Positions 4 through 57,150 of a stretch of 64,000 bases of DNA are shown here, piece after piece (positions within the stretch are counted from its first letter, which is position 1; the number at the start of each line of letters is the position of its first letter). The notes under the pieces are model-generated. The model saw only the letters and a program-made list of their open reading frames with translations, was not told where the DNA came from and made no database searches. This stretch comes from Planctomycetales bacterium (GTDB taxonomy: Bacteria; Planctomycetota; Phycisphaerae; SM23-33), in contig JAUWNJ010000010.1 in assembly GCA_030612725.1 (NCBI GenBank), forward strand, positions 32,837-96,836, written 5' to 3'. Both the position numbers and the translations under genes were made by a program.

Positions 4-405
4 GTGCCGGTCATGCGGAAATTAATCGAACAAATCCGCTCGCTGGGCATGAAAAGCATCTACTACTACAGCGGCAACCCTGCCGGAAAATGGGAGCAGA
101 TACTCTCGCTCGGCATGGACGCCCTGGCGCTGGAAGAGAGCAAGAAAGATTTCACCATCGACATTGAAGAGGTCGCCGAGCGGGTGTCAGGGCGGTACAC
201 GCTGCTGGGTAATCTCGACGCAATTGGCGTTCTCCAGGACGGCAGCGACGAGCAACTCCGCGCCGAGGTCGCCCGCCAGATCGCCGCCGGTCGTAAGAAC
301 GGCAGCCGGTTCATCATGAGCCTCGGCAGCCCGCCGACGCCCGCCACGCCGGTCGAACGCGTCCGCCTCTACCTCGAACTGGCGCGCGAACTCGGCGACA
401 GGTAG
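4..405 (+). CDS. Uroporphyrinogen-decarboxylase (URO-D/MtaA-like) family protein, C-terminal fragment; 5' end lies outside the window
   Basis: ORF-track translation ends with a URO-D-fold-like C-terminus (YYYSGN...LGNLDAIGVL...). Partial at the window edge, and the family assignment is from memory of the fold. Confidence 0.4.
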   Translation: MPVMRKLIEQIRSLGMKSIYYYSGNPAGKWEQILSLGMDALALEESKKDFTIDIEEVAERVSGRYTLLGNLDAIGVLQDGSDEQLRAEVARQIAAGRKNGSRFIMSLGSPPTPATPVERVRLYLELARELGDR

Positions 406-428
406 GCCGGGGCAAGCAAGGAACGTAG

Positions 429-454
429 CATGGGCGTCTCGCCCATGTTTTTTT
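429..454 (+). terminator. Intrinsic terminator-like hairpin (catgggc-gtctc-gcccatg) followed by a T7 run
   Basis: Perfect 7-bp GC-rich stem with a 5-nt loop and a ttttttt run, 24 nt after the stop of the 4..405 ORF. It belongs to a repeat family also seen at 22577 and 41892. Confidence 0.55.
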
Positions 455-476
455 CACGGCCGGGACGCCCGTGCCA

Positions 477-2546
477 CTACTTCTCGGAAATCATCTTCTT
501 CGCCTTTGCCGCCAGGGGCGATTCGGGGTAATCCTTGACGATTCGCCGAAAAGTCTTTCGGGCAAGGTCGGTCTTTCGCATTTTGGTGTAGGCTTCGGCT
601 GACAGCATCAGCAGTTCCGGCGCGTAGTGGCTGCGGGGATTGACACGGATGAGTATCTGGGCCTGACGGGCGGCTGCGGCGTATTGCTTCCGCGACGTCG
701 CCAGTTTCGCGCGGATTAACGTCGAAAAACCCTCCAGTTTGTCGGTGGGAAATTCGTATTCCCATTTGTCCAAAGCCCCGGCTGCATCGTCAAACAATCG
801 CCGACGGAGGTAATCTTCGGCATGGCGGGCCAGGTCGCCTTTTCGGACGGCGGGTTTCATTTTCGCATCGCCTTTGACCGCCCCGGATGCTCGGTACGCT
901 TCGGCGGCCTTATCGTAATTTCCGCGATGGCGCCAGACGTCGCCGATACCGATTTTCGCTTCGCGGATTGCGCGATGCGTTGTCAGTGCGGCGTATTTTT
1001 TAATAGCGCGGGCGAAAATGCTCATAGCTCTGTCGATTTTATCATTTTCCAGGGCGATCTTTCCGGCGCGCACAAGCATCTCGGCTGACACGTCCGGCGC
1101 ATCGGTCATCTTCGCCGCTTTGACCAGTGCATCGACGGCCCGCCCCGGAGCGTCGGCGGTACGGATAAGCGCATCGGCGTAAATCCCCATCGCATCGCGC
1201 AGGACCGCCGAGGGCGCCTTGTTGCGAGCGATGAGTGCGTCGCCCGCGCGAATAACCGCCTCTTTCAGACCCGCGCGTTTGAAAATGATAACAGCCCCGG
1301 TGATGTCGCGCGAATCCGAAGCGGTAAAATCATAACCGGCTGCGATGCGTGCGTAATTGGCGGGAGGGTCCATGAGATTTTTTGCAACCTTATCCCACCG
1401 GCGCGATACGTATATGACGTTGGTCCGCGTGAGCGTCTGTGAGCCGATTTTAACCCTCAGCGTTACCTTATATCGCCCGTCGCGAAGATATACATGCTCG
1501 CATTTTTTATCCGAGGACTTCTGCCCGTCGCCGAAATCCCAATGGTATTGAACCTTGCCGCCGAATCGCCCCTTCAGCATGGCTTCAAATACGTACCGCT
1601 GAAAGTAGCGATTCGCCAGAAAGGTCTCCCCGGCGTGGCGCGGTATGAAATCGGCGTGCCGGCTCCGGCCATATCGTTCCAGGATACCGGGGGTCGCCCG
1701 ACGAACCGGCGCGAAGGCGCTGGGCGGAATTTTCCAAAGTCGCCGACCATTGGGCGTGCGCCATGCAGCCACAACCACCGGATTACCACCGGTGCCGACG
1801 TGATAGACCTTCAATTCGTGCAGGCCTTTGGAAAGTTTTATCCGTCCCTGCCTGACCGCACGACGCTGAGGACGATGATGCCGGCCATTGGAAACGATCA
1901 CCTTACCATCGACCAGCAGGAAAGAGGCGTCCCGGCTGGTGGTGGAAAAAATGTATTGCCCGTCGGCGGGGCAAACGAGATAACCCGTGAAGATGCTGCA
2001 TATCCGGTTCTGCGGGCCGAAGGGATTATAACCAAGGAAAATATCCCTGCGGAAGTCCCTGCCGAGCAGTTTTTTGCTTCGCTCGAAGATTCGTTGGACT
2101 TGCTTGAAATTCGCAATTCCCCCGCCGGTGTAGGCCCACGTCTCCATCAGCACGCCACGACGGATTTGCAGTTCCTGTTTCGGCGCCTCGGCCTTGGGAT
2201 TTCCGAAATAGAGGAAGTATTTTTTGATTGGCGGCTTCAGTTCGAACGCGACGCGGACGCTGTTGCCGGGGCCGACCATCAGCACTCGATGAGGCAGTAG
2301 CGTTCCGGTGGCGGTGGTTACGCGGATGTCGCGCCCGTCCGCGGCGGTAAGCCCGCCGGTCGGCATGGTAACGACGGCGATATCCCGGCCTGTTTTCAGA
2401 TTGGTCTTCGAAACGTCGCTCACCGTTACAGCCCGACGGTACGGCCAGTTATAATTCCACCAGCCTCCCTGCGCAGACACCGGCGCAGCCGCCGCCAGCA
2501 CCGCCGCAACGATGCAAATACGTAATGACCTGAAAACACTTTCCAT
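477..2546 (-). CDS. Secreted multidomain protein: signal peptide, DUF2341-like N-terminal region, PA14-like segment, PKD-like motif (YHWDFGDG), C-terminal TPR-like repeats
   Basis: 689-aa ORF with a hydrophobic N-terminal signal (AAVLAAAAPVSAQG), a GxxxCPADGxYxF PA14-like motif, YHWDFGDG, and an alanine-rich repeat-like C-terminus. Confidence 0.55.
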   Translation of the reverse strand: MESVFRSLRICIVAAVLAAAAPVSAQGGWWNYNWPYRRAVTVSDVSKTNLKTGRDIAVVTMPTGGLTAADGRDIRVTTATGTLLPHRVLMVGPGNSVRVAFELKPPIKKYFLYFGNPKAEAPKQELQIRRGVLMETWAYTGGGIANFKQVQRIFERSKKLLGRDFRRDIFLGYNPFGPQNRICSIFTGYLVCPADGQYIFSTTSRDASFLLVDGKVIVSNGRHHRPQRRAVRQGRIKLSKGLHELKVYHVGTGGNPVVVAAWRTPNGRRLWKIPPSAFAPVRRATPGILERYGRSRHADFIPRHAGETFLANRYFQRYVFEAMLKGRFGGKVQYHWDFGDGQKSSDKKCEHVYLRDGRYKVTLRVKIGSQTLTRTNVIYVSRRWDKVAKNLMDPPANYARIAAGYDFTASDSRDITGAVIIFKRAGLKEAVIRAGDALIARNKAPSAVLRDAMGIYADALIRTADAPGRAVDALVKAAKMTDAPDVSAEMLVRAGKIALENDKIDRAMSIFARAIKKYAALTTHRAIREAKIGIGDVWRHRGNYDKAAEAYRASGAVKGDAKMKPAVRKGDLARHAEDYLRRRLFDDAAGALDKWEYEFPTDKLEGFSTLIRAKLATSRKQYAAAARQAQILIRVNPRSHYAPELLMLSAEAYTKMRKTDLARKTFRRIVKDYPESPLAAKAKKMISEK

Positions 2547-44822: not shown

Positions 44823-46328
44823 ATGTTGGAATTTCGACTTTTGGTTATCGCCGATTCGCACTACGCCTCGTGTGGCGACGACGTTGTCTCAGGCCCGAGC
44901 CGCCGATGCGACCTGGGATGCGAGATTGTCCGACGGGCTATTGTCGATGCCGACCGACGGGGCGGATTCGACGCTATCGCCCTGATGGGCGACCTGATAG
45001 ACAACGGTAATTCGCCGCGGGCGATGGAAGATTTGCTGGCGGTGCGTGATGTGGTCCGTGCCGCTGCGCCGGATACTCCGCTGCTGGTGGTTCCCGGAAA
45101 CCACGACGGAGACCCGCAACGCCTGCTGGATATATTCGAGCATCGTTGTGGCCTGCATAAAATAGGGCCATACCGCTTCATTACATTCGCCGATTCATAC
45201 GTCAATGACCGGATATGCACTCGCAACGAAGCGGATCGGCGACTGATGATGGATGAGTCCGCCCAGGCCGGTCCGCCGATTATCGTCCTCCAGCACAACC
45301 CGATGAACCCGGTTATCGTCAAGGACGAATATCCGTTTATGTTGACCAATCGGACGGAGGTAATGGCCGATTACGCTGAAGCAGGCGTCGTGCTGTCGAT
45401 AAGCGGGCATTACCATACGGGCCAGGCTTTAAATGTCGCCGACGGCGTGCGATATTTCACAGCCCCCGCCGTCTGCGAGGCTCCGTTCCGCTACGCGATG
45501 ATTACGCTGCGAGAGCGGGACATGGACGTCGAACTCCGCCCGCTGGCAGCCGAGGCCGAACCGGCAATTATCGACTGCCACGCACATACCGAATTCGCAT
45601 ATTGCGGTACGGACATCACCGCCGAGGGCGCTATCGCCCGCGCTCGCATCTTCGGCCTGGCCGGACAGTGCCTCACCGAACACGCCGGACAACTCTATTG
45701 CAACCAAGATGACTTCTGGACCGCTCGCCATATTCGAGAGCCGGCTGTGTGGCGCAGCGGGGAAAACTCCCGAATGGCGGAGTTCCGCGAGAAAATGCTC
45801 CCGCTGCGGGACGACTTCGTTCGCGTCGGGCTGGAGGTCGGACTTGATGCGGACGGAAAACTTACCATCCGCGACGAAGACCGCGATTGGCCTGACCTGC
45901 TCATCGGGGCTGTGCACTGGATACCCGAAGACCCCGACGAATTGAACGACGCGCAGTTGGCCGACGCATTCATGCGGGCGTCGAGAGGCCTGGCCGAATC
46001 AGGCGTGGACATCCTGGCTCATCCCTGGCGGTTCTTCCGTCGGGAAAAGCGCCCCACGCCGAAGGAACTCTACGGCGACCTCGCCGACGTATTGGCGGCC
46101 ACCGATACCGCCGCCGAGATAAACTTCCACACGAATCAGCCGGACCCGGTCTTCATTGCCGAGTGCATCGCACGCGGCGTGAAAATCTCCTTTGCCTCCG
46201 ACGCCCACGCAATGTACGAACCCGGCGGCCTCACCGCGCACCTGGCGCTGCTGCGCCAAGCGGCAGGACGCGACGACATCGCCGATTTGTTATTCTATCC
46301 GCCTGCGCACCAACAACCCGGTTATTGA
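44823..46328 (+). CDS. Calcineurin-like metallophosphoesterase domain fused to a C-terminal PHP (polymerase/histidinol-phosphatase-like) domain
   Basis: GDLIDNG ... VVPGNHDG metallophosphoesterase motifs, then IDCHAHTEFAYCGTDI, a PHP-like HxH start. Confidence 0.55.
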   Translation: MLEFRLLVIADSHYASCGDDVVSGPSRRCDLGCEIVRRAIVDADRRGGFDAIALMGDLIDNGNSPRAMEDLLAVRDVVRAAAPDTPLLVVPGNHDGDPQRLLDIFEHRCGLHKIGPYRFITFADSYVNDRICTRNEADRRLMMDESAQAGPPIIVLQHNPMNPVIVKDEYPFMLTNRTEVMADYAEAGVVLSISGHYHTGQALNVADGVRYFTAPAVCEAPFRYAMITLRERDMDVELRPLAAEAEPAIIDCHAHTEFAYCGTDITAEGAIARARIFGLAGQCLTEHAGQLYCNQDDFWTARHIREPAVWRSGENSRMAEFREKMLPLRDDFVRVGLEVGLDADGKLTIRDEDRDWPDLLIGAVHWIPEDPDELNDAQLADAFMRASRGLAESGVDILAHPWRFFRREKRPTPKELYGDLADVLAATDTAAEINFHTNQPDPVFIAECIARGVKISFASDAHAMYEPGGLTAHLALLRQAAGRDDIADLLFYPPAHQQPGY

Positions 46329-46503
46329 TAAAGGTGCAAATAATGCCCGTCTCTAAAGCCGATAGATGAGCGACGCGAAGCGCCCCTTCGGGAAGCGAAT
46401 CCGTCGGAAACGAAAATAAACTCGAAAGATTCCGAAAAATCGCCGAAAGTAAAAATACCTGCTTGAAAACTCGCCGGGTTGCGGCGAAGATGAACGGGTA
46501 TGT

Positions 46504-46577
<74 letters not shown>

Positions 46578-46667
46578 ATGTTTGACCTGCCGGGTTTTTT
46601 CTTGACGAACCTGTCGGGTTTGGGATAAAAACTCGGTAGGTTTGTGTAATTAACGATACAAAGGAGC

Positions 46668-46802
46668 ATGGTAATGATCGATCTGAGTATGTTGGCCGCC
46701 GATAGCGGCGAGTATTTCAACTGGAAGATTCAGCTGCCCCTGCTGGCGGTACTGGTCGGCGTGATTGTCTTCTGGCTGTGGTATCGCAAGAAGCAGATGT
46801 AA
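46668..46802 (+). CDS. Possible small membrane peptide (44 aa), not in the ORF track
   Basis: aaggag RBS at 46661-46666, then ATG; it encodes MVMIDLSMLAADSGEYFNWKIQLPLLAVLVGVIVFWLWYRKKQM with one TM helix. A perfect 10-bp hairpin follows at 46852-46881. Confidence 0.3.
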   Translation: MVMIDLSMLAADSGEYFNWKIQLPLLAVLVGVIVFWLWYRKKQM

Positions 46803-46851
46803 TTCGCGCCCGTTCTATTTCTCCTCGCGCCGCCGCCTAAGGTGTCAGCAA

Positions 46852-46881
46852 CCTCGTATGCTTTAGGCTTTGCATACGAGG
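46852..46881 (+). terminator. Perfect 10-bp hairpin cctcgtatgc-N10-gcatacgagg followed by a T-rich stretch
   Basis: Read directly. Lies downstream of the small ORF and upstream of holA. Confidence 0.35.
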
Positions 46882-46925
46882 TTTGTTCTATGCGAGTTTC
46901 AAAGCAGCCATTGCGACTCGGGTGA

Positions 46926-47852
46926 GTTCGCGGGAGGTTTCGCATCCCTCATTCACCAGACAGGTCCGTCTTCGTCCTGCACGGCCAGGACGCATTCCTG
47001 CACCAGAAGCGGTGCGCCGAACTCATTAACCAACTAACCGGGCCGGACGACGCAAACCTCGCCGTTGCGAAATTCGACGCCGACGCCGAACTCGCCGACG
47101 TGATGGACGAGTTGCGGACTGCCCCGCTTCTGGCAGGACGACGAATCGTAATCGTCCGCGATTCCGACGCCTTCGTTATCGAACACGCCGCAACACTGGC
47201 GAAATACCTCGCCGCACCTGCCGGCACAGGAACGCTGATCCTTTTGGTCAATTCCTGGCCTCCGAAAACGCAGCGCAAAGATTCAGATACAATCGCCGCC
47301 ATCAAGGCATTGACCAAAATTGTCGGTAAGGTCGGTGAATTGACAAACTGCTCCGCGCCGTCGTCGGCCGCGCTTCCGAAGTGGATTTCCCAGGCCGCCG
47401 AAGCGCACGGTAAAAATATGGCTCCGCAGGCAGCGCGAATGCTGGCGGAATGGATCGGAGCCGACCTGGCCCGGCTCAACGGTGAAATCGAAAAACTCGT
47501 CCTTTACGTCGGCGACCGGAAGGGAATCTCCTCTGCGGACGTCTCCGCCGTCGCCGTCGCCACGGGCGGATATAAACCGTTCGCGCTGACGAACGCCATC
47601 GGGCGACGCGACACGCGCAAGGCGCTGACAATACTGGCGGAAATGCTCACCAGCCGGGGCGAAGAAATCAAAACGCTCGGAATGTTGGCATGGCATGTGC
47701 GAAAAATGCTCGCCAAGGCAGGCCGGAATACCGCCGCAGCCGCAAAAATGCGACGCGACACCAGAAAACTACTCGCCGCAGACCTCGCCATCAAATCCGG
47801 CGCAGACTCTGCCACCACAATGCAACTGCTCGTAATGGACTTGTGTAGCTGA
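46926..47852 (+). CDS. holA: DNA polymerase III delta subunit
   Basis: C-terminal HolA pattern (YKPFALTNAIGRRDTRKALTILAEML). The N-terminal HolA-like region (VFVLHGQDAFLHQKRCAELINQL) is in-frame upstream of the first GTG (47100), but no canonical start codon lies between the in-frame TGA at 46923 and 47100. Confidence 0.5.
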   Translation, partial: VRGRFRIPHSPDRSVFVLHGQDAFLHQKRCAELINQLTGPDDANLAVAKFDADAELADVMDELRTAPLLAGRRIVIVRDSDAFVIEHAATLAKYLAAPAGTGTLILLVNSWPPKTQRKDSDTIAAIKALTKIVGKVGELTNCSAPSSAALPKWISQAAEAHGKNMAPQAARMLAEWIGADLARLNGEIEKLVLYVGDRKGISSADVSAVAVATGGYKPFALTNAIGRRDTRKALTILAEMLTSRGEEIKTLGMLAWHVRKMLAKAGRNTAAAAKMRRDTRKLLAADLAIKSGADSATTMQLLVMDLCS

Positions 47853-47875
47853 ACGAAAAGCAACTGGAGAAGAGC

Positions 47876-48703
47876 ATGAGTATTATCAAGATCGCGCTGG
47901 CGCAGGTATCGGCGACGGACAACAGAGAAGAAAACCTCCAAAAAGCCTTCAGCCTCATGGAGCAGGCGAAAGACCAGGACGCCTCAATCATCTGCTTCCC
48001 CGAAATGGCCTTCGACCCGTTCTTTCCGCGAGTCCGCACCGACAAGCGATATTTCGACCTGGCCGAACCGATTCCCGGACCGATGGTCGAGAAGTTTCAG
48101 GAAAAGGCAAAGCAGCTATCCCTGGCCACCGTCATAAATATGTACGAACTGGCTGCGCCGGGAGAATACTACGATTGCTCGCCGGTGATAGACGCCGACG
48201 GCGCCCTGCTTGGCATCAGCCGGATGATGCACATCGCCGAACTACCCAATTACAACGAAAAATTCTACTATTGGGAAGGCAACACGGGCTTTCCGGTTTT
48301 CCAGGCGGGCGGCGCGAAGATCGGGATCGCCATCTGCTATGACCGCCACTTCCCCGAACAGATGCGGGCGCTGACGCTCGGCGGAGCGGAGATTATCCTC
48401 GTCCCGACCGCCACGTCCACGCCGGCGCTAAAGCACATCTGGCACGTCGAGATGCAGGCGGCCTCAATAGCAAACCAGGTGTTCGTAGCATTGAACAACC
48501 GGGCGGGAACCGAGGGCGAAATGACCTTCTTCGGAAGGAGTTTCGTCGTCAACCCGCGCGGCGAGGTTATCGCGCAGGCCAAGGAAAACGAAGAAGACCT
48601 GCTGGTGGTCGAACTGGACCTCTCGCTTATCGAGCAGACCCGACGGGACTTACCATTCCTCCGCGACCGCAGACCCGACGCCTATGGCCCGCTGATTGAG
48701 TAG
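47876..48703 (+). CDS. Carbon-nitrogen hydrolase (nitrilase superfamily)
   Basis: IALAQV...ICFPEMAF... and the Glu/Lys/Cys arrangement (GIAICYDRHFPE) typical of CN hydrolases. Confidence 0.75.
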   Translation: MSIIKIALAQVSATDNREENLQKAFSLMEQAKDQDASIICFPEMAFDPFFPRVRTDKRYFDLAEPIPGPMVEKFQEKAKQLSLATVINMYELAAPGEYYDCSPVIDADGALLGISRMMHIAELPNYNEKFYYWEGNTGFPVFQAGGAKIGIAICYDRHFPEQMRALTLGGAEIILVPTATSTPALKHIWHVEMQAASIANQVFVALNNRAGTEGEMTFFGRSFVVNPRGEVIAQAKENEEDLLVVELDLSLIEQTRRDLPFLRDRRPDAYGPLIE

Positions 48704-48734
48704 GCTGGGCCGGAGCGAAGCGGAGTCCCACCTT
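48700..48734. repeat. Single-arm copy of the gtaggctgggccggagcgaagcggagtcccacctt element, immediately after the nitrilase stop and followed by a T run
   Basis: Identical to the arms in lipA (37946.., 38010..) and at the lipB-lipA junction (37297..). Confidence 0.5.
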
Positions 48735-48807
48735 ATCCCTTTTTTAATCCACAATCCGCAATTTGATCTCTTGATCATTCGCTCGATTTGATCAACGATC
48801 GCGGCCA

Positions 48808-50112
48808 ATGAGCGAAAACACAAAAAATCCCCCCACCTACTTCACCGATGCCGCCGGACGCTTCACCCTCTATCAGGGAAATTGCCTCGAACTGATGCCG
48901 CTACTACCGGCCTGCTCATTCGACCTCATCTTCGCCGACCCGCCGTATTTCCTCTCCAACGGCGGAATCACATGCCATGCCGGGAAGATGGTCTCCGTCA
49001 ACAAGGGCAAATGGGACCGCTCGATGGGCTTCGCCGGAAACTACGCATTCACCAAAGACTGGATCGCCCGATGCCAACGCCTCCTCAAACCCAACGGGAC
49101 AATGTTCGTCTCCGGCACCAGCCACATCATACACATCGTCGGAGCCGTTATGGACGAACTAGGCCTGAAAATCCTAAACGACATCACCTGGGTAAAGCCG
49201 AACCCGCCGCCGAACCTGTCGTGCCGGTATTTCACGCACGCTGCCGAGACGATTCTCTGGGCAGGCCGGGATAAAAAGTGCCGGCACAAGTTCAATTATC
49301 AGTTGATGAAGCGAATCAACGGCGGAAAGCAGATGAAGAGCGTCTGGACGGATATAGAAACGCCGCGACGGGACGAAAAAGTCTTCGGAAAGCACCCGAC
49401 GCAGAAACCGCTCGCCCTTCTGGAGCGGATAATCGCAGCCGCCAGCGACGAAGGCGACCTCATCCTCGACCCCTTCAGCGGCTCAGCCACAACAGGAATC
49501 GCGGCTGCAAGAATGAACAGACAATCCATAGGCCTGGAGATGGAAACGGAATTTCTGGATATCGGCGTGCATCGTTTCGTCGGCGTGCCACAGGCTGACA
49601 ATCCCGACCGCATTCTCGATTTAATAAAAGTACATGCTTTGGGAAATCCGACTCCAACCGAACTTGCACGTTGCTTGGGCATGACTGAACGCCAGGCGCA
49701 TTACTACCGGCAAGCCGCTTCAATACTCGGACTACTTCGACGCTCGGAAAGCGGCTGGGCATTGACCGAAATCGGAAAGACCATTTGCGAAAACAGGCAA
49801 TTGTACGCCCGTTCACTTTTAGCGCAAAGGATACTGGAACTTCCGCTCGTCCAGTCAGCCATCAGGAAAAGCCGGAGGTATCGCACCAAAAACACAAAAT
49901 GCCGAATCATTGCAGAGTTATTATCCCGCAGCACCGCACTGACCGGTTCGACTTGCACACGGCGAGCACAAACGCTCTTGGCATGGATAGATTGGTCGCT
50001 GGCGCACTGTTGCGCCGAACCTGTCCTGCCGGTATTTCACGCACACTGCCGAGACGATTCTCTGGGGCGGCAAAACGAAAAGTTGGTAAAATGCCAACGG
50101 TTCGCTATATAA
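48808..50112 (+). CDS. Beta-class N6-adenine DNA methyltransferase of the CcrM/M.HinfI family (probable GANTC specificity) with an extended C-terminal region
   Basis: FADPPY (motif IV) precedes LDPFSGSATTG (motif I), the beta-class order. Block-by-block similarity to CcrM (ILNDITWVKPNPPPN, FNYQLMK, HPTQKPLALLERII). The C-terminal ~170 aa are atypical. Confidence 0.8.
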   Translation: MSENTKNPPTYFTDAAGRFTLYQGNCLELMPLLPACSFDLIFADPPYFLSNGGITCHAGKMVSVNKGKWDRSMGFAGNYAFTKDWIARCQRLLKPNGTMFVSGTSHIIHIVGAVMDELGLKILNDITWVKPNPPPNLSCRYFTHAAETILWAGRDKKCRHKFNYQLMKRINGGKQMKSVWTDIETPRRDEKVFGKHPTQKPLALLERIIAAASDEGDLILDPFSGSATTGIAAARMNRQSIGLEMETEFLDIGVHRFVGVPQADNPDRILDLIKVHALGNPTPTELARCLGMTERQAHYYRQAASILGLLRRSESGWALTEIGKTICENRQLYARSLLAQRILELPLVQSAIRKSRRYRTKNTKCRIIAELLSRSTALTGSTCTRRAQTLLAWIDWSLAHCCAEPVLPVFHAHCRDDSLGRQNEKLVKCQRFAI

Positions 50113-50121
50113 TCGCACACC

Positions 50122-50859
50122 ATGAAACAATATGAAGCAGTCATTCGGACGTTGGAAAACCTGGGGGGTCTCGCAACGTTAGGACAACTCTACGGCGAGG
50201 TGTTCAAAATAACCGACTGCAAATGGGGGACGAAAACGCCGCTTGCAAGCATCCGCCGCATCGTTCAAACGCGCAAAGAAATCTACAAGATAAAACCTGG
50301 CCTCTACGGATTGACCACACTGAAAAGAGAACACGTCTCTCGCGGTATCGTCGCGGAAACGGCGAAGAACAGGGATTCTGCCGAAGTGGTGCGCTTCAAC
50401 CATACCTACTATCAGGGTTTGCTGCTCATCGTCGGAAAACTGAAGCGATTTGATTGCTGGTCGCCCAATCAGGATAAAAACAAAGTGTTTTTGGACGGAA
50501 CAATTGATTCGCTCCGCACCCTCAAGGAGATGCCGCGCTTTTCATACGATAATTTGGTGAATCGCAGCGCGACCGTCGATGTTATCTGGTTCAATGAGCG
50601 CGGAATGCCGAGCAGTTTTTTTGAGATTGAACACAGCAGCGACATCCAAAACTCGCTGCTCAAGTTCAACGACTTGCAGGATTTTCAGACTCGAATGTTC
50701 ATCGTCTCAAACACCAAACGCCGCAAGGAGTATGAAAGCAAAATCAAATACTCTTCGTTTCGGGATATTGCGGGCAGGGCGAAGTTTCTTTCCTTCGATT
50801 GGCTCGTGAAGGAATACGAGCACACCGTCGAAGCAAGCAGCGCAGAAGTAACGCTCTGA
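50122..50859 (+). CDS. Uncharacterised protein with N-terminal winged-helix-like domain and restriction-endonuclease-like C-terminal region; candidate cognate endonuclease
   Basis: Starts 10 nt after the methyltransferase stop. N-terminus resembles Mrr-N-type wH (GGLATLGQLYGEVFKI...IRRIVQTRKEIYKIKPGLYGL). VDVIWFN...FFEIEH could be a degenerate PD-(D/E)xK core. Lower GC. Confidence 0.4.
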   Translation: MKQYEAVIRTLENLGGLATLGQLYGEVFKITDCKWGTKTPLASIRRIVQTRKEIYKIKPGLYGLTTLKREHVSRGIVAETAKNRDSAEVVRFNHTYYQGLLLIVGKLKRFDCWSPNQDKNKVFLDGTIDSLRTLKEMPRFSYDNLVNRSATVDVIWFNERGMPSSFFEIEHSSDIQNSLLKFNDLQDFQTRMFIVSNTKRRKEYESKIKYSSFRDIAGRAKFLSFDWLVKEYEHTVEASSAEVTL

Positions 50860-50964
50860 TGAGTTTAAGGCGGGTAGCGTGGTCGCGTTTTTGGGGCCAC
50901 ATTTACGTCAGCGCGGCCACGGTTTGTTCCACCAGAAGGCACACAGCAAGGTTGCAACAATGCG

Positions 50965-52032
50965 ATGACAAAGAACGTTTGCGAGAAATGCATATACTGC
51001 AATGCTCCTGTGCAAGGTGGTTCGCAAGGGGACCACGTGATACCGGCAGCGCTTGGAAAGTTCCGAAACGCGACTAACTTCAAACGCATTTGCGTAAAGT
51101 GCAATTCCGAGATTGGCCGCTGTGAGGAACAACTACTAAGGTGCGGTCCGGGAGTGCTGTTCAGGCGATTGGTCATACCGGCAACCCACCGGTCACGCGG
51201 TCAACCCAGAGCTTCCATGACGGGCGCTGGGGGAGTCCCTCCTCCCGAGGTGTGGGCGCACTTCCCAGACCACAAAGAGGCCGTCACTCTAACCGAGTCA
51301 GGCCGAAACGTTGTCGGTTTCGATCACCTGGTTGTTTATGATGATAAGGATGAAGGTCATGTTGTACGTCTGAATCCGAACATGTCGCCGGAGGCACTTC
51401 GGGCGGCCGTCAAAAGGCTTGGCCTCAAGAAGATAAAGGTGACCACCTCGCACTTCGCCAAGAAAAACGAACACACATCTGATCTCTATCTGAAGATATT
51501 TTCACAGGCTTGGCCGGAAGCCCAATATGAGCAAAAACCAGATCTAGATCCGGGAGTGCATCCTGTTCCTGTCGAGTTTAAATTTGTTGCCACCGACCTT
51601 TACTTCCGTGCGATTGCGAAGATTGCTTTCCATTACTACCTGACACAGTCGATGAGGTCGCTAGGGAATGAAGACTATTTTCGAGAAATCAGGGACTTCA
51701 TCAGATACGGTGGCGGAAAACTTGCTGTGGACAAGTTCTTTATTGGCTCAAACATATTCAGTTTCCCGCAGTTCCTAAGTAACATGGTCCCCAGTTGGTG
51801 GCATCATATTCTTGCTACACTGGAGCGCGACGGAACCGTTTTCGCTATGGTCTGTCTCTTCTACGGCCCCGAGTGCAAAGGCGAACGGTACACGTTGGAA
51901 CTAGGAAAGATCCCGGGGCGTATTGTTTTGCCGAAGTCTTGCTGGGCACACACTTATGACTACTTCCGTCCCGAAGACATCGGCAAGTACGCTGGCAAAG
52001 TGCATCCGGTTTCTATCACCGCGCTGCGGTGA
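50965..52032 (+). CDS. HNH-nuclease-domain protein with large uncharacterised C-terminal domain
   Basis: N-terminal CEKCIYCNAPVQGGSQGDHVIPAALGKF...CVKCNSEIGRCE is an HNH/Zn motif. 355 aa. Lower GC than the flanks. Confidence 0.5.
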   Translation: MTKNVCEKCIYCNAPVQGGSQGDHVIPAALGKFRNATNFKRICVKCNSEIGRCEEQLLRCGPGVLFRRLVIPATHRSRGQPRASMTGAGGVPPPEVWAHFPDHKEAVTLTESGRNVVGFDHLVVYDDKDEGHVVRLNPNMSPEALRAAVKRLGLKKIKVTTSHFAKKNEHTSDLYLKIFSQAWPEAQYEQKPDLDPGVHPVPVEFKFVATDLYFRAIAKIAFHYYLTQSMRSLGNEDYFREIRDFIRYGGGKLAVDKFFIGSNIFSFPQFLSNMVPSWWHHILATLERDGTVFAMVCLFYGPECKGERYTLELGKIPGRIVLPKSCWAHTYDYFRPEDIGKYAGKVHPVSITALR

Positions 52033-52200
52033 CGATTTCGCGCTCGCTGGTTTTTAAATCACTTGGATTGCGAAAATAGGCAACCACGGCACTATCCGTC
52101 GGCGAGATGGATGTTCAATTGCAGATTCATCGTGTTCTGAGTCGATCATCAATCGGTATGTGCGTCAAGAGGGAAATCAGCATTTCGCGCGATATCTTCC

Positions 52201-52249
52201 CGCTTCCTACCCTTCGGGTCTGAGCCTCAGGGTCGAAGGGTAGGAAGCG
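52201..52249. repeat. Perfect 16-bp-stem hairpin cgcttcctacccttcg ... cgaagggtaggaagcg with an internally palindromic loop
   Basis: Read directly. Lies within the repeat-dense noncoding region. Confidence 0.55.
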
Positions 52250-52288
52250 GGTATCACCGGGCTTTCGATTATCCCTTGATCGCGCTGT

Positions 52289-52426
52289 GTTCGCATCTGC
52301 GCGCGCAAACGCGAACGTAAAAATCGGGGAGATGAAAAATTCCAAAAAAACTTTTCCCAAGGCCGCCAAGGACTTATGCCGTCGCTATCCGTTTTGTGTT
52401 CGCCTTTGCGCGCGCAAACGCGAACG
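52289..52426. repeat. Two copies of the palindromic motif gttcgcNtYtgcgcgcgcaaacgcgaac (52289-52316 and 52399-52426)
   Basis: Read directly. Each copy is itself a hairpin (gttcgc/gcgaac arms around gcgcgcgc). Confidence 0.5.
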
Positions 52427-52446
52427 CAAAAGATAATATAGAGGAC

Positions 52447-52591
52447 AGATAGGGACCTAGGGACTTGGGACTAGAAGATAGGGCCTAGGGCGTAGGGCAT
52501 AGGGCGTAGGGCGTAGGGAATGCGTAGCATCACTACGTGAAAACAGATGAACCAGTCAACCAGTCAACCAGTCAACTAATCAACCATCAAC
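52447..52591. repeat. Composite repeat array (right): gatagggacctagggacttgggactag plus tagggc tandem units, then gcgtagcatcactacgtga, then accagtcaacc tandem units
   Basis: Reverse-complement arrangement of the array at 43153-43302. Confidence 0.6.
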
Positions 52592-52700
52592 TTGGGCCGT
52601 TTAGGCAAGATAGGCAATGGTGGATTTTTAAAAATGGGCGTAAAAATGACCTCAAAAAACATAAATGATTGGCTCGTAAGGACTTGTGGATTTTGGAAAC

Positions 52701-52807
52701 TTTCCCAATTGTTCCCAATCGTTCCTAATCGTTCCCATTTGTTCCCAATCGTTCCCAATCGTTCCCATTCGTTCCCATTCGTTCCGAATTGTTCCGTTTC
52801 GTTCCGC
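52701..52807. repeat. 11 consecutive 10-nt units gttcccaatc (variants tttcccaatt, gttcctaatc, gttcccattc, gttccgaatt...), with exact 10-nt periodicity
   Basis: Read directly. The ORF-track ORFs 52592..52984 and 52686..52991 are translation artefacts of this array. Confidence 0.6.
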
Positions 52808-52995
52808 AGCGGTGGTCCGCGGAGTCCCCGCAGAGTCCTCGCAGAGTCCTACGGGCTACGGACTACCGAACAGGAAAGATTCCTTCCGCTTCCCCCCACG
52901 GGGCTTCCTTGCGGTCGCGGCTCGCTTGTTGTGCTTGTTCATTCGACGGTTTCCGATTATACTCGAGTCGGATTTAATTTCTAAGGGGTAATGCG

Positions 52996-53454
52996 ATGCG
53001 AGTTGAGACACAATTTTCGGTATTTCTGGTCAACAAGCCCGGCGTGCTGGCACAGGTAACCAGCGCCCTTGCCAAAGCCAAAATCGACCTGATAGCCCTG
53101 ACGCTGGTGGATTCCAGCGAGCACGGCGTATTGCGGATAGTCTGCGCCGGTGAAAACGACAAGGTTCGCAAGGCCCTCGCCCAGGCGCAAGACCAATTCA
53201 CCGAGACCGAAGTGCTGGTAATGGAACTTTCCAATAAGCCAGGCGCATTTTCGGCAATGACGCAAAAACTCGCCGACGCACACATCAATATCAGTTACGC
53301 ATATTGCACCGGCGGGGCGAAAGGCGGAAAGACGACGGCCGTTTGCAAAGTCGCCGACCTGAAGAAGGCGTTGAAAGTGCTCAAACCGGCACGCAGCGGC
53401 AGCAGCAAGAACACGCGGGTAAAAATCAAAGCCGCTCCGCGCAGACGGCGATAA
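52996..53454 (+). CDS. Tandem ACT-domain protein
   Basis: Two repeats of the ACT-like pattern (FSVFLVNKPGVLAQVTSALAKAKIDLIAL ... LVMELSNKPGAFSAMTQKLADAHINIS). Confidence 0.55.
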   Translation: MRVETQFSVFLVNKPGVLAQVTSALAKAKIDLIALTLVDSSEHGVLRIVCAGENDKVRKALAQAQDQFTETEVLVMELSNKPGAFSAMTQKLADAHINISYAYCTGGAKGGKTTAVCKVADLKKALKVLKPARSGSSKNTRVKIKAAPRRRR

Positions 53455-53466
53455 GGGGAAAATTTT

Positions 53467-54183
53467 ATGATTTTAGCGGCAATTCGAGATGGATTCATTC
53501 TGGATTCGTGGACAGTCGAGTCAATCGTCCGCCTGCTTGTGGCGGCTGCGCTTGGCGGGCTTGTCGGTCTGGAGCGCAAGCAGCACGGGCGGGCGGCTGG
53601 TCTGCGGACTCACCTGCTGGTAGCGCTGGGAGCAGCTATGGCGATGGTCGTCTCGCTGCACTTCGAGCACGTATTCGGCAAGACCGGAGCCGAGATGTCC
53701 ATTCGGATAGACCCTGCCAGGGTCGCTTACGGCGTGATGGCGGGTATCGGATTCCTTGGGGCCGGCGCTATTATCCAGTACGGCGTGGGTGTTCGCGGCC
53801 TGACCACTGCTGCGAGCATGTGGTGTACTGCGGCGATAGGATTGGGGGCGGGGTTCGGGATGTTCGCCGTATCGTTCGTCGCCGTGGCTATTGTCCTGTT
53901 CGCGCTTATCGTTCTGGACGTCGTTGACCGCCACATCCCCGTCAGGTTCACCAAGAACATCAAACTCGACGTTCCGGGAACCTCGCCCGACGCCATCGAC
54001 CGTTACGAAAAACTATTGGCAGGACGAAACGTCAAAGTAGTCAACATGGGATACACATGCGATTTCGAGAACGACTGCTCGACCATATCGCTGCGGATTT
54101 CCGCCAGGGTCGCCCACATAACCGAAGCAATGAACCGTCTCCGCGAAGGCGCACCGGAAATCACGGGTATGAAGGTCGCGTAA
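53467..54183 (+). CDS. MgtC/SapB-family membrane protein
   Basis: LVAAALGGLVGLERKQHGRAAGLRTHLLVALGAAM is the MgtC signature; plus a C-terminal soluble domain. Confidence 0.65.
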   Translation: MILAAIRDGFILDSWTVESIVRLLVAAALGGLVGLERKQHGRAAGLRTHLLVALGAAMAMVVSLHFEHVFGKTGAEMSIRIDPARVAYGVMAGIGFLGAGAIIQYGVGVRGLTTAASMWCTAAIGLGAGFGMFAVSFVAVAIVLFALIVLDVVDRHIPVRFTKNIKLDVPGTSPDAIDRYEKLLAGRNVKVVNMGYTCDFENDCSTISLRISARVAHITEAMNRLREGAPEITGMKVA

Positions 54184-54342
54184 GTTTTACCTCATTACGA
54201 ATGCGTACTGAATGATGAACAGCACAGCGAAGATATAGACAATGAGCGGACACTCCTTCACCCGTTTGAAATAAAAAGCGAAACGACAAGCCGGATGACT
54301 CGTCGTTTCGCAATGTTGTTTTTTACACTCTCGCGGCGTTTT

Positions 54343-55671
54343 CTATTTCAACAGTTCGTCGGCGTGTTCGGCCACCTTGCGGAAGGCGGCGGCGTATTCT
54401 TCGATAATTTCCGGACGGTCGTGCTTGAACCACGGAATCGAGATCGCCCTCTTGGCGATGCCTTCTGTCACCGGCAGCGATCCCGGACCTTGTCGCACGT
54501 CGCGCGACGCGTTGGCGATGACCGTCGGTTTCCCGTGGCCATAGACATCCGCATCGTGAAGGGCCGGGTGCAGGTGCAGCGGTCCGTTGATTCCGGGACG
54601 GGTCTCGAAGCCCTCTGCCGTCAGGGCCTGGCAGAACTTCTCGGCGCTCAGTCCGCCCAGTTCCTCAGACCTGTACAGGCCCTTGGCGGCGTACCACCCG
54701 CCCATCGTCGAACCGGAATCCGCCGGCGGGCGGTGGGCCTTGATGCCCGGAACGCCTTCCAGCAAATCCCAGAAGCGGTTCATCGCCTTCTGTATCTCCA
54801 CAATGCGCTGCGGGTAGTATTTAAGTTGCACCCGCGCCAGCGAGGAGGCGACCTGGTTGAGGCGGTGCTTGTATCCGCCGAGCGGGACGCCGGCGAATTT
54901 CTTCAGTTCCGGGTTGGTAATCTGACCCTTCCCGTCGCTGTACATCGACGGCAGTCCTGTGCGCTCGTAGTGCCCGAAGGCCGCTGCCCGCTCGAAAATG
55001 TTCTGATCGTTGGTGATGAGCATTCCGCCCTCGCCGGCCACCAGGCTCTTACCGGCCATCATGCTGAATGCGCCGACGTGACCGATCGTACCGAGCGCCC
55101 GCCCCTTGTACAGGCCGCCCTGGGCGTGAGAGACGTCCTCAATGACCTTGACGTTGTGCTTCTCGGCAATGGCCATTATCTCGTCCATCTCGGCGGGATA
55201 CGCGCAGTTGTGCACCACCACGATGGCCTTTGTGTCTTCACTGATGCGATGCTCAATGTCGGCAGGGTCTATGCAGAGGGTGTCGCCGAGGATGTCGGCG
55301 AAGTTAATCGTCGCGCCCAGAGACAGCGCCGGAAGGGCGGCTGCCCAATAGACCGGCGACTGGATGATAATCTCGTCGCCGATGCCCACGCCGCAGCCGA
55401 ACATCGCGCCGAGAAGCGAGGCGGTGCCGTTGCAATAACCCAGGGCGTATTTCACGCCGAGCCACTCGCAAACTTCCTTCTCCAGTTGCTTGGTAACGTC
55501 CGTACCGCTCATCCCGACGCCGCGGTGTATCATTTCCAGCACAGCCTGTTCGTCCTCGGACGTGATTATAGGCCAGGTGAACATATCGGCGGGGTCCTTC
55601 GTTATCGCCTTAGGCCCGCCGAGAAGCGCGAGGGATGATTTCGTCGAAGATGCTACCTCTGTCGATGACAT
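54343..55671 (-). CDS. DegT/DnrJ/EryC1/StrS-family PLP-dependent aminotransferase (second copy)
   Basis: GYCNGTASLLGAMFGCGVGIGDEIIIQSPVYWAAA and downstream motifs. Confidence 0.75.
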   Translation of the reverse strand: MSSTEVASSTKSSLALLGGPKAITKDPADMFTWPIITSEDEQAVLEMIHRGVGMSGTDVTKQLEKEVCEWLGVKYALGYCNGTASLLGAMFGCGVGIGDEIIIQSPVYWAAALPALSLGATINFADILGDTLCIDPADIEHRISEDTKAIVVVHNCAYPAEMDEIMAIAEKHNVKVIEDVSHAQGGLYKGRALGTIGHVGAFSMMAGKSLVAGEGGMLITNDQNIFERAAAFGHYERTGLPSMYSDGKGQITNPELKKFAGVPLGGYKHRLNQVASSLARVQLKYYPQRIVEIQKAMNRFWDLLEGVPGIKAHRPPADSGSTMGGWYAAKGLYRSEELGGLSAEKFCQALTAEGFETRPGINGPLHLHPALHDADVYGHGKPTVIANASRDVRQGPGSLPVTEGIAKRAISIPWFKHDRPEIIEEYAAAFRKVAEHADELLK

Positions 55672-55717
55672 TGCACTGCTCCTTTTTTCAATTCAAGATG
55701 AACGTTTTACAGAATTA

Positions 55718-55808
55718 ACCACAAAGGGCACAAAGAACACAAAGGCAATAAAGAATATTTCAATTCCGTTCTTTGTGTTCTTTGTGCCCTTTGTGGTTCG
55801 TTTTTTTA
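55718..55808 (+). terminator. 27-bp perfect inverted repeat (accacaaagggcacaaagaacacaaag / ctttgtgttctttgtgccctttgtggt) with a 25-nt loop, followed by tcgttttttta
   Basis: Read directly. Lies between the tRNA-Asp 3' end and the DegT start. Its orientation as a terminator for the + strand is puzzling because no + strand gene lies upstream. Confidence 0.45.
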
Positions 55809-55810
55809 AA

Positions 55811-55884
<74 letters not shown>

Positions 55885-56049
55885 ACGCGTACTTCCCTTT
55901 TACCCACGAGGGAACCAACCCTTATACCGCAATAGACAGGGAATTGTCAATAGCGATTTGACCGAAAATCATAGTTTCTGCATCTTGCCGTTTTGCGACC
56001 ATGCCGGTATACTCCACAATTCGGATACTAAACAAAAAGGGTGCAAACA

Positions 56050-57150
56050 ATGAAGATTGCGGTAATTGGCGGCGACGGGACAGGCCCGGAAGTGGTGGCG
56101 GAAGGTCTGAAGGTTCTCAAAGCAGTGGCTGGGAAGGTTGGCTTCGAGTACGAGACGAAGGATTTTAATGTCAGCGGCGACAGGTACCTCGCCAATGGTG
56201 GCGACCCGGAAAAACCCTCCATCCCCATCATCGACGAGGACGAAATCGAAGAACTCAAAACCTTCGACGCGATTTATCTCGGGGCTGTCGGGCATCCCGA
56301 CGTAGCGCCCGGTATTCTGGAAAAGGGGCTGCTGCTGCGTCTTCGTTTCGCGCTGGACCAGTACGTCAATCTCCGCCCGGTAATGCTCTATCCCGGCGTA
56401 CCGTGTCCGCTGGTCGGTAAAGGCCCCGACGACATCGACTTCGTGGTTATCCGCGAGAACACTGAGGGCATCTACACCGGAATGGGCGGCATCCAGTACA
56501 AAGGCACGCCGCAGGAAGTTTCAACGCAGGTCAACTGCACGACGCGGTTCGGCGCCGAGCGGGCCATTCGTTACGCCTTCGAAACCTGCAAAAAACGCAA
56601 CGCCAAAAAACGCCTCACGCTGGTCCATAAAACAAACGTCCTGACCTTTGTCGGTCAGACCTGGTTCAACGCCTTCGAAGCCGTAGCCAAAGAATATCCG
56701 GACATCGAAACCGATTACAACCACGTGGACGCCTGCTGCATGTGGTTTATCAAGAACCCGGAGTTTTACGACGTAATCGTTACGGACAACATCTTCGGCG
56801 ACATAATCACGGACCTCGGCGCGATGATCCAGGGCGGAATGGGCGTAGCCGCAGGCGGAAACATCAATCCCAACGGCGTCAGCATGTTCGAGCCTATAGG
56901 CGGCTCTGCCCCGAAGTACACGGGCAAGAACGTCATCAACCCCATCGCCGCCATCGCCGCGATGGCGATGCTGCTGAGCGAGACGGGGCAAAACACCGGC
57001 GACGCCAAACTCGCCGATGCGGGTCGGCGCGTCGAATCGGCCATAAGGTCCGTTACATCGAAGATGAAATCGCAGTCGGCCGGAAAAATGGGCTTCACCA
57101 CCACCGAAATAGGCGATCTTGTAGCCGATGCCGTCGCAAAGACAGAATGA
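56050..57150 (+). CDS. Isocitrate/isopropylmalate dehydrogenase-family enzyme (3-isopropylmalate or tartrate dehydrogenase-like)
   Basis: [17 protein letters not shown]-terminus, NLRP, and the [19 protein letters not shown]-terminal signature. Confidence 0.7.

Follow-up and report, generated by a model that had tools for sequence, protein, structure and literature searches.

The stretch of DNA analysed in this work (hereafter the window) consists of 64,000 nucleotides of contig JAUWNJ010000010.1 from a Planctomycetales bacterium. Three consecutive genes of the window are considered here: a gene for a DNA methyltransferase (MTase), a gene for a 245-aa protein (P2), and a gene for a 355-aa protein with an HNH motif (P3). 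It is likely that the first two genes constitute a type II restriction-modification (R-M) operon directed at GATC (48765-50859) and that the third is an independent, free-standing HNH gene (50965-52032). The three open reading frames (ORFs) are all located on the forward strand and encode proteins of 434, 245, and 355 aa. Their coordinates are exactly those reported in an earlier reading of the same DNA that was made from the letters alone (hereafter the sequence-only reading). The gap between the MTase and P2 genes is 9 nt, not 10 nt as had been given there, and the gap between the P2 and HNH genes is 105 nt. The lower guanine-plus-cytosine (GC) content that had been pointed out is seen in all three genes (0.547 for the MTase gene, 0.491 for the P2 gene, and 0.517 for the HNH gene) when compared with the flanking housekeeping genes (0.57-0.59).

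The MTase is a beta-class amino-methyltransferase, as had been proposed. It matches the Pfam family N6_N4_Mtase at residues 39-252 (E = 4e-53) and DUF7226 at residues 268-398 (E = 2e-15). The motifs exhibit the beta-class order with DPPY ahead of FxGxG, and both DPPY and FSGSATTG are intact. The label of CcrM/HinfI family given by the sequence-only reading was borne out for the class, and CcrM is indeed the best match in the PDB, but neither the subtype nor the probable target site implied by that label held. The top NCBIfam match of the MTase is the CcrM equivalog model NF050803, which scores 228.8 bits and does not reach its cutoff of 830. In CcrM, G1 is read by R44 and T4 by R129, P45 intercalates, the N base is sandwiched between L38 and L42, and H134 makes a dimer contact (Horton et al., PMC6787082). 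All of these residues are swapped in the MTase of the window (R44 to H, P45 to A, L38/L42 to N/T, R129 to Y, and H134 to A), and its Loop-2B is two residues shorter than that of CcrM in the multiple alignment.

The plasmid sequences nearest to the MTase by tblastn are the second MTase of the Lactococcus plasmid pSRQ700 and those of Staphylococcus plasmids (50-53% identity), whereas alphaproteobacterial records are only 41-43% identical. In the alignment, the MTase shares 49% identity with its pSRQ700 counterpart and 44% with CcrM. The recognition loops of the window MTase in the multiple alignment are 'DPPYFLSNGG--ITCHAGK' and 'NPPPNLSCRYFTH'. Those of the second MTase of pSRQ700 are 'DPPYFLSNGG--MSNSGGQ' and 'NPAPNLSCRYFTH', and the Staphylococcus DpnII-type cassettes have similar loops. 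CcrM exhibits 'DPPYNLQLGGDLLRPDNSK' and 'NPMPNFKGTRFAN' at the same two positions. Both 'DPPYFLSNGG' and 'NLSCRYFTH' are common to the window MTase and the second MTase of pSRQ700. The pSRQ700 and Staphylococcus plasmids carry a three-gene cassette that consists of a Dam-family MTase, the second MTase, and a type II restriction endonuclease, and the endonuclease of pSRQ700 belongs to the DpnII family (PF04556, E = 4e-86). The pSRQ700 system (LlaII/LlaDCHI) recognises GATC (PMC11514479; PMC6458302). Because of the low CcrM score, the lost CcrM residues, and the pSRQ700-type loops, the MTase is assigned by sequence comparison to the DpnA/LlaDCHI-B subtype of beta-class methylases, and its target is most likely GATC.

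P2 exhibits two domains in its AlphaFold model (pLDDT 90.1), a winged helix of the HARE-HTH type (approximately residues 1-75) and a C-terminal PD-(D/E)xK fold. Both had been anticipated by the sequence-only reading. Four catalytic-type residues (D153, E168, E170, and K181) are invariant across the P2 family, and P2 of the window has all four. At E <= 0.001 the family comprises 5,143 clusters. The 120 listed homologues are 60-93% identical to P2 over the full length and belong to Verrucomicrobiota, Planctomycetota, Acidobacteriota, Marinimicrobia, and other groups. The Pfam family PF27126 (NmeDI_C) is precomputed on all 120 listed homologues, and P2 itself was placed in PF27126 through these homologues. 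The PADLOC model REase_II (351 positions) matches P2 at residues 116-197 (E = 1.2e-5). P2 does not match the DpnII family of Pfam (PF04556), and it is not R.HinfI-like, a relationship that the sequence-only reading had considered. Endonuclease domains fused to HARE-HTH have been described as restriction enzymes of R-M systems that modify adenine at N6 (Iyer et al., PMC4738411). The distribution of the family is patchy: a pattern-limited scan of 185,579 species genomes confirmed 335 matches. Its members cross phyla at approximately 60% identity. A housekeeping MutH-like role was considered and was rejected because of this patchiness and movement between phyla. P2 is evidently a nuclease of the restriction type, with adenine methylases as its partners.

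The neighbours of P2 were compared among 80 genome loci that contain a P2 homologue (denoted by L-numbers), approximately 62 of which have full flanks. A beta-class N6_N4 MTase is located upstream or downstream of P2 on the same strand at 26 of the 80 loci. A D12-class MTase is found at 14 loci, and its stop codon often overlaps the start of P2. Small PF05869 'Dam' MTases are found at some other loci. The closest match of the D12 MTase coupled to P2 is DpnM, which methylates GATC in the DpnII system (E = 2e-47), followed by Dam of E. coli. Approximately 60% of the full-flank loci have an adjacent adenine MTase from the beta, D12, or PF05869 class, and approximately 40% are solitary; a Pfam scan of the 27 full-flank loci without a recognised MTase added one at only two of them. 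Such swaps among three non-homologous classes of adenine methylases are expected of a restriction nuclease whose site needs protection. A verrucomicrobial locus (L088, 4993-7735) also carries a 73-aa controller-like gene of the HTH_3 family that ends 4 nt before P2. On the opposite strand, that locus encodes a 206-aa MutH/MvaI_BcnI-like nuclease besides an N6_N4 MTase and thus contains two nucleases.

GATC is depleted in the window, with 130 observed versus 338 expected sites (observed/expected ratio, O/E, 0.38), whereas the O/E of GANTC is 0.95. When 71 P2 loci were pooled, the O/E of GATC is 0.42 (median 0.34) and that of GANTC is 0.80, and only CTAG, which is universally rare, is lower than GATC. 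Control loci that have only the HNH gene exhibit GATC O/E of 0.8-1.04. The MTase gene contains one GATC versus 6.0 expected, and the P2 gene contains none versus 3.9 expected. The HNH ORF contains five versus 4.6 expected (P = 0.07 for its density against the genome rate), and its lack of depletion weakly suggests a recent arrival. A separate observation was made for AGCT, which is rarer still than GATC in the window (26 versus 144 expected, O/E 0.18). This suggests an AluI-type (AGCT) restriction system that the genome carries or meets outside the region.

Four GATC sites are located within 36 bp in the window, the last of them 7 nt before the ATG of the MTase gene, whereas the genome mean is 2 GATC per kb. 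In the cluster, the unit ATTTGATC-N3/4-GATC is present twice. All four sites are kept in both related loci L005 (3895-3940) and L006 (1984-2030) despite a diverged spacer between the copies. At least four GATC within 46 nt are found at 9 of the 80 P2 loci, compared with a permutation mean of 0.34 and maximum of 5 (1000 runs); at least three are found at 22 loci, compared with a permutation mean of 5.7 and maximum of 13. Other palindromic tetramers, which are 1.1-2.9 times more abundant than GATC, reach four or more at only 0-5 loci. In Verrucomicrobiota, Acidobacteriota, and Bacteroidota, the clusters are found a short distance ahead of the 5' ends of MTase genes of the beta, PF05869, or D12 class, and sometimes also ahead of the nuclease gene, in genomes that otherwise have few GATC sites. 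Clusters of 3-6 GATC in approximately 46 nt are also exhibited by L008, L009, L010, L012, L014, L015, L023, L024, L028, L034, L041, L074, L079, and L080. Among these, L008, L009, L012, and L014 have a second GATC cluster approximately 290 nt upstream of P2. We infer that the clusters are operators composed of the target sites of the system itself, and that they would thereby make expression sensitive to methylation.

The HNH gene stands outside the R-M system. A P3 homologue is absent from all 80 P2 loci, and the MTase and P2 are absent from all of 89 P3 loci. The surroundings of P3 are also unrelated to each other, and consist of SIR2-like and YopA-like genes at one place, VapBC and cupin genes at another, and genes of sugar or amino-acid metabolism elsewhere. 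A census of 129 immediate P3 neighbours identified no family in more than three cases and few defence genes. The HNH family thus occurs apart from the MTase, which is the second of the two results that the sequence-only reading had named as leaving just an R-M system plus a hitchhiker. A gene similar to those of large serine recombinases is located near P3 at four loci (by sequence inspection only), and three members of the family are found on IMG/VR contigs.

The same independence is exhibited by the nearest relatives of the window, which are Planctomycetales and Phycisphaerae metagenome-assembled genomes (MAGs). L006 is a Planctomycetales MAG with 90-93% DNA identity to the window and syntenic holA, hydrolase, MTase, and P2 genes. 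Its identity breaks right after the stop codon of P2 and returns at approximately 52288, with approximately 295 nt of unrelated sequence in place of the 1.4 kb of the window. L006 therefore lacks the HNH gene, yet it keeps the MTase-P2 pair. The identity of L005 also ends after the stop codon of P2 and returns at 52093, with approximately 2.6 kb in between. The slot of L005 (6472-8422, minus strand) contains a gene for a 488-aa HD-domain protein (HD and HD_assoc_2) and an overlapping gene for a 170-aa protein that matches no Pfam family; the two genes possibly form a further small cassette for defence or for a toxin. No repeats that bound the HNH cassette were found. The contents of L006 and L005 indicate that the region after the R-M operon is a variable cassette slot of which the HNH gene is the current occupant. 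On the upstream side, the carbon-nitrogen hydrolase gene (47876-48703) is present in the window and L006 and is missing from L005 (3683-3876), so an insertion or deletion site is present on this side of the operon too.

The fusion of DUF7226 to the MTase was identified by tblastn only in the window, L005, and L006 among the P2 loci. L011 has a separate, divergent DUF7226-like ORF (227-625, minus strand) upstream of P2, without the MTase catalytic domain. A deep homology search with the DUF7226 region identified no matches. Near its end the MTase gene contains a 54-bp duplicate of one of its own segments. Translated in another frame, the duplicate encodes the C-terminal tail of the protein, and the sequence beyond it resembles an L012-type MTase allele. 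L005 has a different MTase fragment downstream of P2 (6365-6474), an equivalent relic that is read in a different frame. These MTase fragments in the window and L005 are probably scars of earlier replacement or recombination of the MTase gene.

P3 has an N-terminal Cys4 zinc-finger HNH domain (residues 6-52) followed by a large C-terminal domain, in agreement with the description that had been made from the sequence. At residues 9-52, the HNH domain matches HNH_5 (PF14279) at 28.4 bits (cutoff 27.5) and HNH (PF01844) at 22.0 bits (cutoff 21.4), and 42 of 46 family members have an HNH match above the gathering score. Invariance is complete or almost complete at C9, C12, D23, H24, C43, C46, and N47, and the family profile aligns to HNH domains of the IscB/Cas9 type in the PDB (E = 5e-4). 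The model of P3 has a pLDDT of 90.9. The C-terminal domain of approximately 300 aa has four invariant residues (H223, E236, H281, and H329), and it has no match among Pfam families or PADLOC systems and no structural relative in the PDB or BFVD. The family is rather small, with 55 clusters in a word-indexed search and 373 representatives at E <= 1e-30 in a full HMMER search. Among the best 150 representatives, most are approximately 350 aa long and match the full profile, and the shorter ones match part of it. Septu is not indicated: PtuB matches P3 only at E = 0.07-0.09, and no PtuA-like ATPase is a neighbour in the window or the family. In one arrangement (L003/L004/L098, 5258-7397, and a JGI contig), an antitoxin-like ORF and a PIN toxin gene are followed by the HNH gene after a 13-nt gap and by a cupin gene after approximately 10 nt. 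This arrangement involves two diverged family members that are 40-44% identical to P3. PIN/VapBC as a conserved partner was rejected since PIN accounts for only 2 of the 129 immediate neighbours. With low confidence, P3 is most likely a single-gene defence or selfish nuclease that acts alone, and its C-terminal domain may recognise the target or trigger.

A mechanism is proposed from these findings. The MTase would methylate the adenine of GATC and protect the DNA of the host. P2 would bind DNA via its winged helix and NmeDI-type nuclease domain and would cut unmethylated incoming DNA at or near GATC. The four-GATC operator before the start of the MTase gene would tune the expression of the operon by its methylation state. 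The HNH protein would work alone, with its C-terminal domain sensing a target or trigger.

Several points weigh against the reading of a GATC R-M operon with an independent nuclease gene. There are 25 solitary P2 loci with no MTase within 2.5-3.5 kb and with housekeeping surroundings. They are mostly from Bacteroidales (Bacteroides, Prevotella, and Muribaculaceae) and include L060, L063, L064, L067, L073, L075-L077, L081-L084, and others. The linkage is therefore not universal, and an unlinked Dam-type MTase would be required at those loci. A gene for a DpnD/PcfM-like 130-aa protein follows P2 at 10 loci (14-34 nt downstream in most), among them several solitary loci; dpnD is part of the DpnI cassette, which is methyl-dependent. 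The GATC O/E is lowest at the solitary loci (0.05-0.3). Classical DpnII-type cassettes contain two MTases and the window only one, and the closest solved relative of that one is CcrM (E ~ 1e-55), with 44% of residues identical in the catalytic domain. The depletion of GATC is correlative and could partly be lineage background, for example in Bacteroidales. UniRef annotates a Bacteroides homologue of P2 as 'HTH HARE-type domain-containing protein', and homologues elsewhere are called 'hypothetical'. It has been proposed that winged-helix and HARE-HTH domains read modified bases (PMC4738411, PMC11037411). For P3, few neighbourhoods resemble defence islands, and the function suggested for it is purely inferential.

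Two other readings of the pair were weighed against the GATC R-M operon. P2 could be a modification-dependent nuclease (type IV or IIM, DpnI-like) whose winged helix reads N6-methyladenine, next to an MTase that is unrelated or non-conflicting. The solitary copies and the association with DpnD are the main reasons for keeping this reading, and many winged-helix-nuclease fusions are type IV enzymes that depend on GATC with N6-methyladenine (G6mATC) (Helbrecht et al., PMC11037411). However, only 13% of those fusions have an MTase within three genes to either side, and the other 87% have none (Helbrecht et al., PMC11037411), compared with the approximately 60% of full-flank P2 loci that have an adjacent adenine MTase. 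P2 of the window does not stand alone either, with an MTase that has all motifs intact only 9 nt upstream. DpnM-like D12 genes that overlap the start of P2 would be suicidal for a G6mATC-dependent enzyme, and a controller-type gene precedes P2 in L088. The depletion of GATC in the host and the GATC clusters at promoters fit an enzyme that is blocked by methylation, and the order of winged helix and then nuclease in P2 is the reverse of that in DpnI. A modification-dependent P2 is thus very unlikely. The second reading is a HinfI/CcrM-type system that recognises GANTC, which is the site that the sequence-only reading had guessed. It draws on CcrM being the best solved relative and the top NCBIfam model of the MTase, and R.HinfI is similar in size to P2. 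The shortfall of the CcrM score against its cutoff, the loss of the GANTC-reading residues and loop lengths of CcrM, and the retention of LlaDCHI-B (GATC) loops all contradict it. The identity of the MTase to the pSRQ700 type exceeds that to CcrM (49% versus 44%) and to alphaproteobacterial records (53% versus 41-43%). GATC and not GANTC is the depleted site in both the window and the pooled loci, P2 has DpnM-like partners elsewhere in its family, and the operator consists of GATC sites, not GANTC sites. Recognition of GANTC is therefore highly improbable.

The two other readings concern the HNH gene. The sequence-only reading had raised the possibility that the three genes are one composite or novel defence module, in which an MTase would cooperate with two nucleases. 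The genes are co-directional with short gaps (9 and 105 nt), all three are lower in GC than their flanks, and L088 shows that a second nuclease (MutH-like) can be present at a P2 locus. Against these points stand the lack of co-occurrence among the 80 P2 loci and 89 HNH loci, the pair without the HNH gene in L006, the other cargo in the slot of L005, the lack of any conserved neighbour in the HNH family, and the depletion of GATC in the R-M genes that is not exhibited by the HNH ORF. A composite module is hardly credible on this evidence. The ordinary type II R-M system that had been named as the simpler case is retained for the MTase and one nuclease, and the second nuclease is not retained as its member. 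Alternatively, the HNH gene could be no defence gene but either a selfish endonuclease of the homing type or a remnant in decay. It is a free-standing HNH gene that is inserted or deleted between near-identical genomes, and the family has three members on viral contigs and four beside a putative large serine recombinase. However, no target-site duplication, flanking repeat, or recognisable homing site was found, and most copies are located in chromosomal, non-phage contexts. The full-length architecture and invariant residues are kept at 25-60% identity, which argues for a selected function, and known homing HNH enzymes have small DNA-binding modules and not a 300-aa domain with conserved His and Glu. 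We regard this origin as unlikely.

The R-M pair is a new member of a kind that is already known computationally, and the novelty of a composite module is not supported. The logic of the pair is similar to that of DpnII and MboI, with a nuclease from an unrelated family. The pair resembles DpnII, LlaDCHI, and MboI in the recognition loops of the beta-class MTase (49-53% identity) and in the proposed logic, in which N6-methyladenine at GATC would protect and unmethylated GATC would be cut. The set of partners of the P2 family is also DpnII-like, as it consists of DpnM-like D12 and DpnA-like beta MTases and sometimes a DpnD-like gene. The differences are that the nuclease of pSRQ700 belongs to PF04556 whereas P2 was placed in PF27126 with an added winged helix, that the window has one MTase and not two, and that this MTase adds a C-terminal DUF7226.

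Judged from its homologues, P2 probably shares the C-terminal PD-(D/E)xK module with R.NmeDI of Neisseria meningitidis, and the REase_II model has the same length of 351 positions. P2 differs in its length of 245 aa, its winged-helix N-terminus, and its adenine-methylase partners, whereas R.NmeDI pairs with a C5 methylase. R.NmeDI has 351 aa, recognises RCCGGY, cuts 12/7 on both sides of it, and is a tetramer (PMC2095814). DpnI and the other winged-helix-nuclease fusions also combine a winged helix with a PD-(D/E)xK nuclease in a setting of GATC and Dam, and some P2 genes have DpnD-like neighbours. However, the domain order of P2 is reversed, its nuclease belongs to another family, and it is frequently in an operon with GATC-type MTases. 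This linkage suggests that methylation blocks P2 and does not activate it. The MTase shares the beta-class motif order with CcrM and M.HinfI, and its C-terminal domain is DUF7226 and not the C-terminal domain of CcrM. P3 is similar to HNH_5 nucleases (HNH of IscB/Cas9, and McrA-like type IV enzymes) in its Cys4 motif with D-H and N. It differs in the matchless C-terminal domain of approximately 300 aa and in having no partner gene.

The P2 family, whose members are mostly called 'hypothetical', can now be read as GATC-type R-M nucleases that are non-homologous to DpnII/MboI and Sau3AI. An operator made of its own sites would explain the timing of methylase versus nuclease expression. The HARE-HTH winged helix may itself read the methylation state of GATC, and expression may be set by the own-site operator. 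The solitary Bacteroidales copies might have a Dam-coupled role beyond classical restriction. The HNH family is a clean candidate for a single-gene activity, since it has a confidently modelled C-terminal domain without matches, no partner, and no annotation. Its C-terminal domain, in a family of approximately 370 representatives, could act in phage defence, either as a sensor of a new type or as a second catalytic domain. It is possible, but rather doubtful when both parts are taken together, that the P2 family represents widespread uncharacterised GATC restriction enzymes and that P3 is the founding member of a family of single-gene nucleases.

The coordinates of the features are given in Table 1.

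Table 1. Features of the R-M operon, the HNH gene, and their surroundings in the window.
Feature	Position	Strand	Description
GATC cluster	48765..48800		Four sites (48765, 48773, 48790, 48797); proposed own-site operator
N6-adenine MTase, beta-class	48808..50112	+	Catalytic domain ~48808-49602; DUF7226 ~49609-50001
MTase-segment duplicate	50013..50066	+	54-bp direct copy of 49208-49263
P2, proposed restriction endonuclease	50122..50859	+	HARE-HTH winged helix and PD-(D/E)xK domain
Variable cassette slot	50861..52092		Identity to L006/L005 broken; HNH gene inside
P3, solitary HNH nuclease	50965..52032	+	Cys4 HNH motif and ~300-aa C-terminal domain
Hairpin	52199..52251		26-nt arms, 1-nt loop, 88% complementary; 3' of the HNH gene

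The genes that flank the three genes are ordinary. The 5' flank consists of trpD-like, PHP-domain, holA-like, tRNA-Met, and carbon-nitrogen hydrolase genes, and the 3' flank consists of genes for an ACT-domain protein, MgtC, and an aminotransferase.

The repeat-dense noncoding stretch at 52033-52995 that had been described in the sequence-only reading is real. Its repeats have no Rfam match and no evident tie to the R-M genes. An Rfam scan of 46000-56500 identified only two tRNAs and sub-threshold matches to microRNA-like hairpins. A GC-rich palindrome is present twice in the stretch (52286-52322 and 52395-52431), and both copies are kept in L006. The stretch also contains an array of a 7-mer (52479-52518), an array of an 8-mer (52542-52581), and a 10-bp tandem repeat of approximately 10 copies (52692-52821). 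A long hairpin next to tRNA-Asp (55712-55805) matches models of plant and animal microRNA precursors on both strands, all below the gathering scores (MIR398, 37.6 bits versus a gathering score of 55). This hairpin is probably a strong inverted repeat or a terminator.

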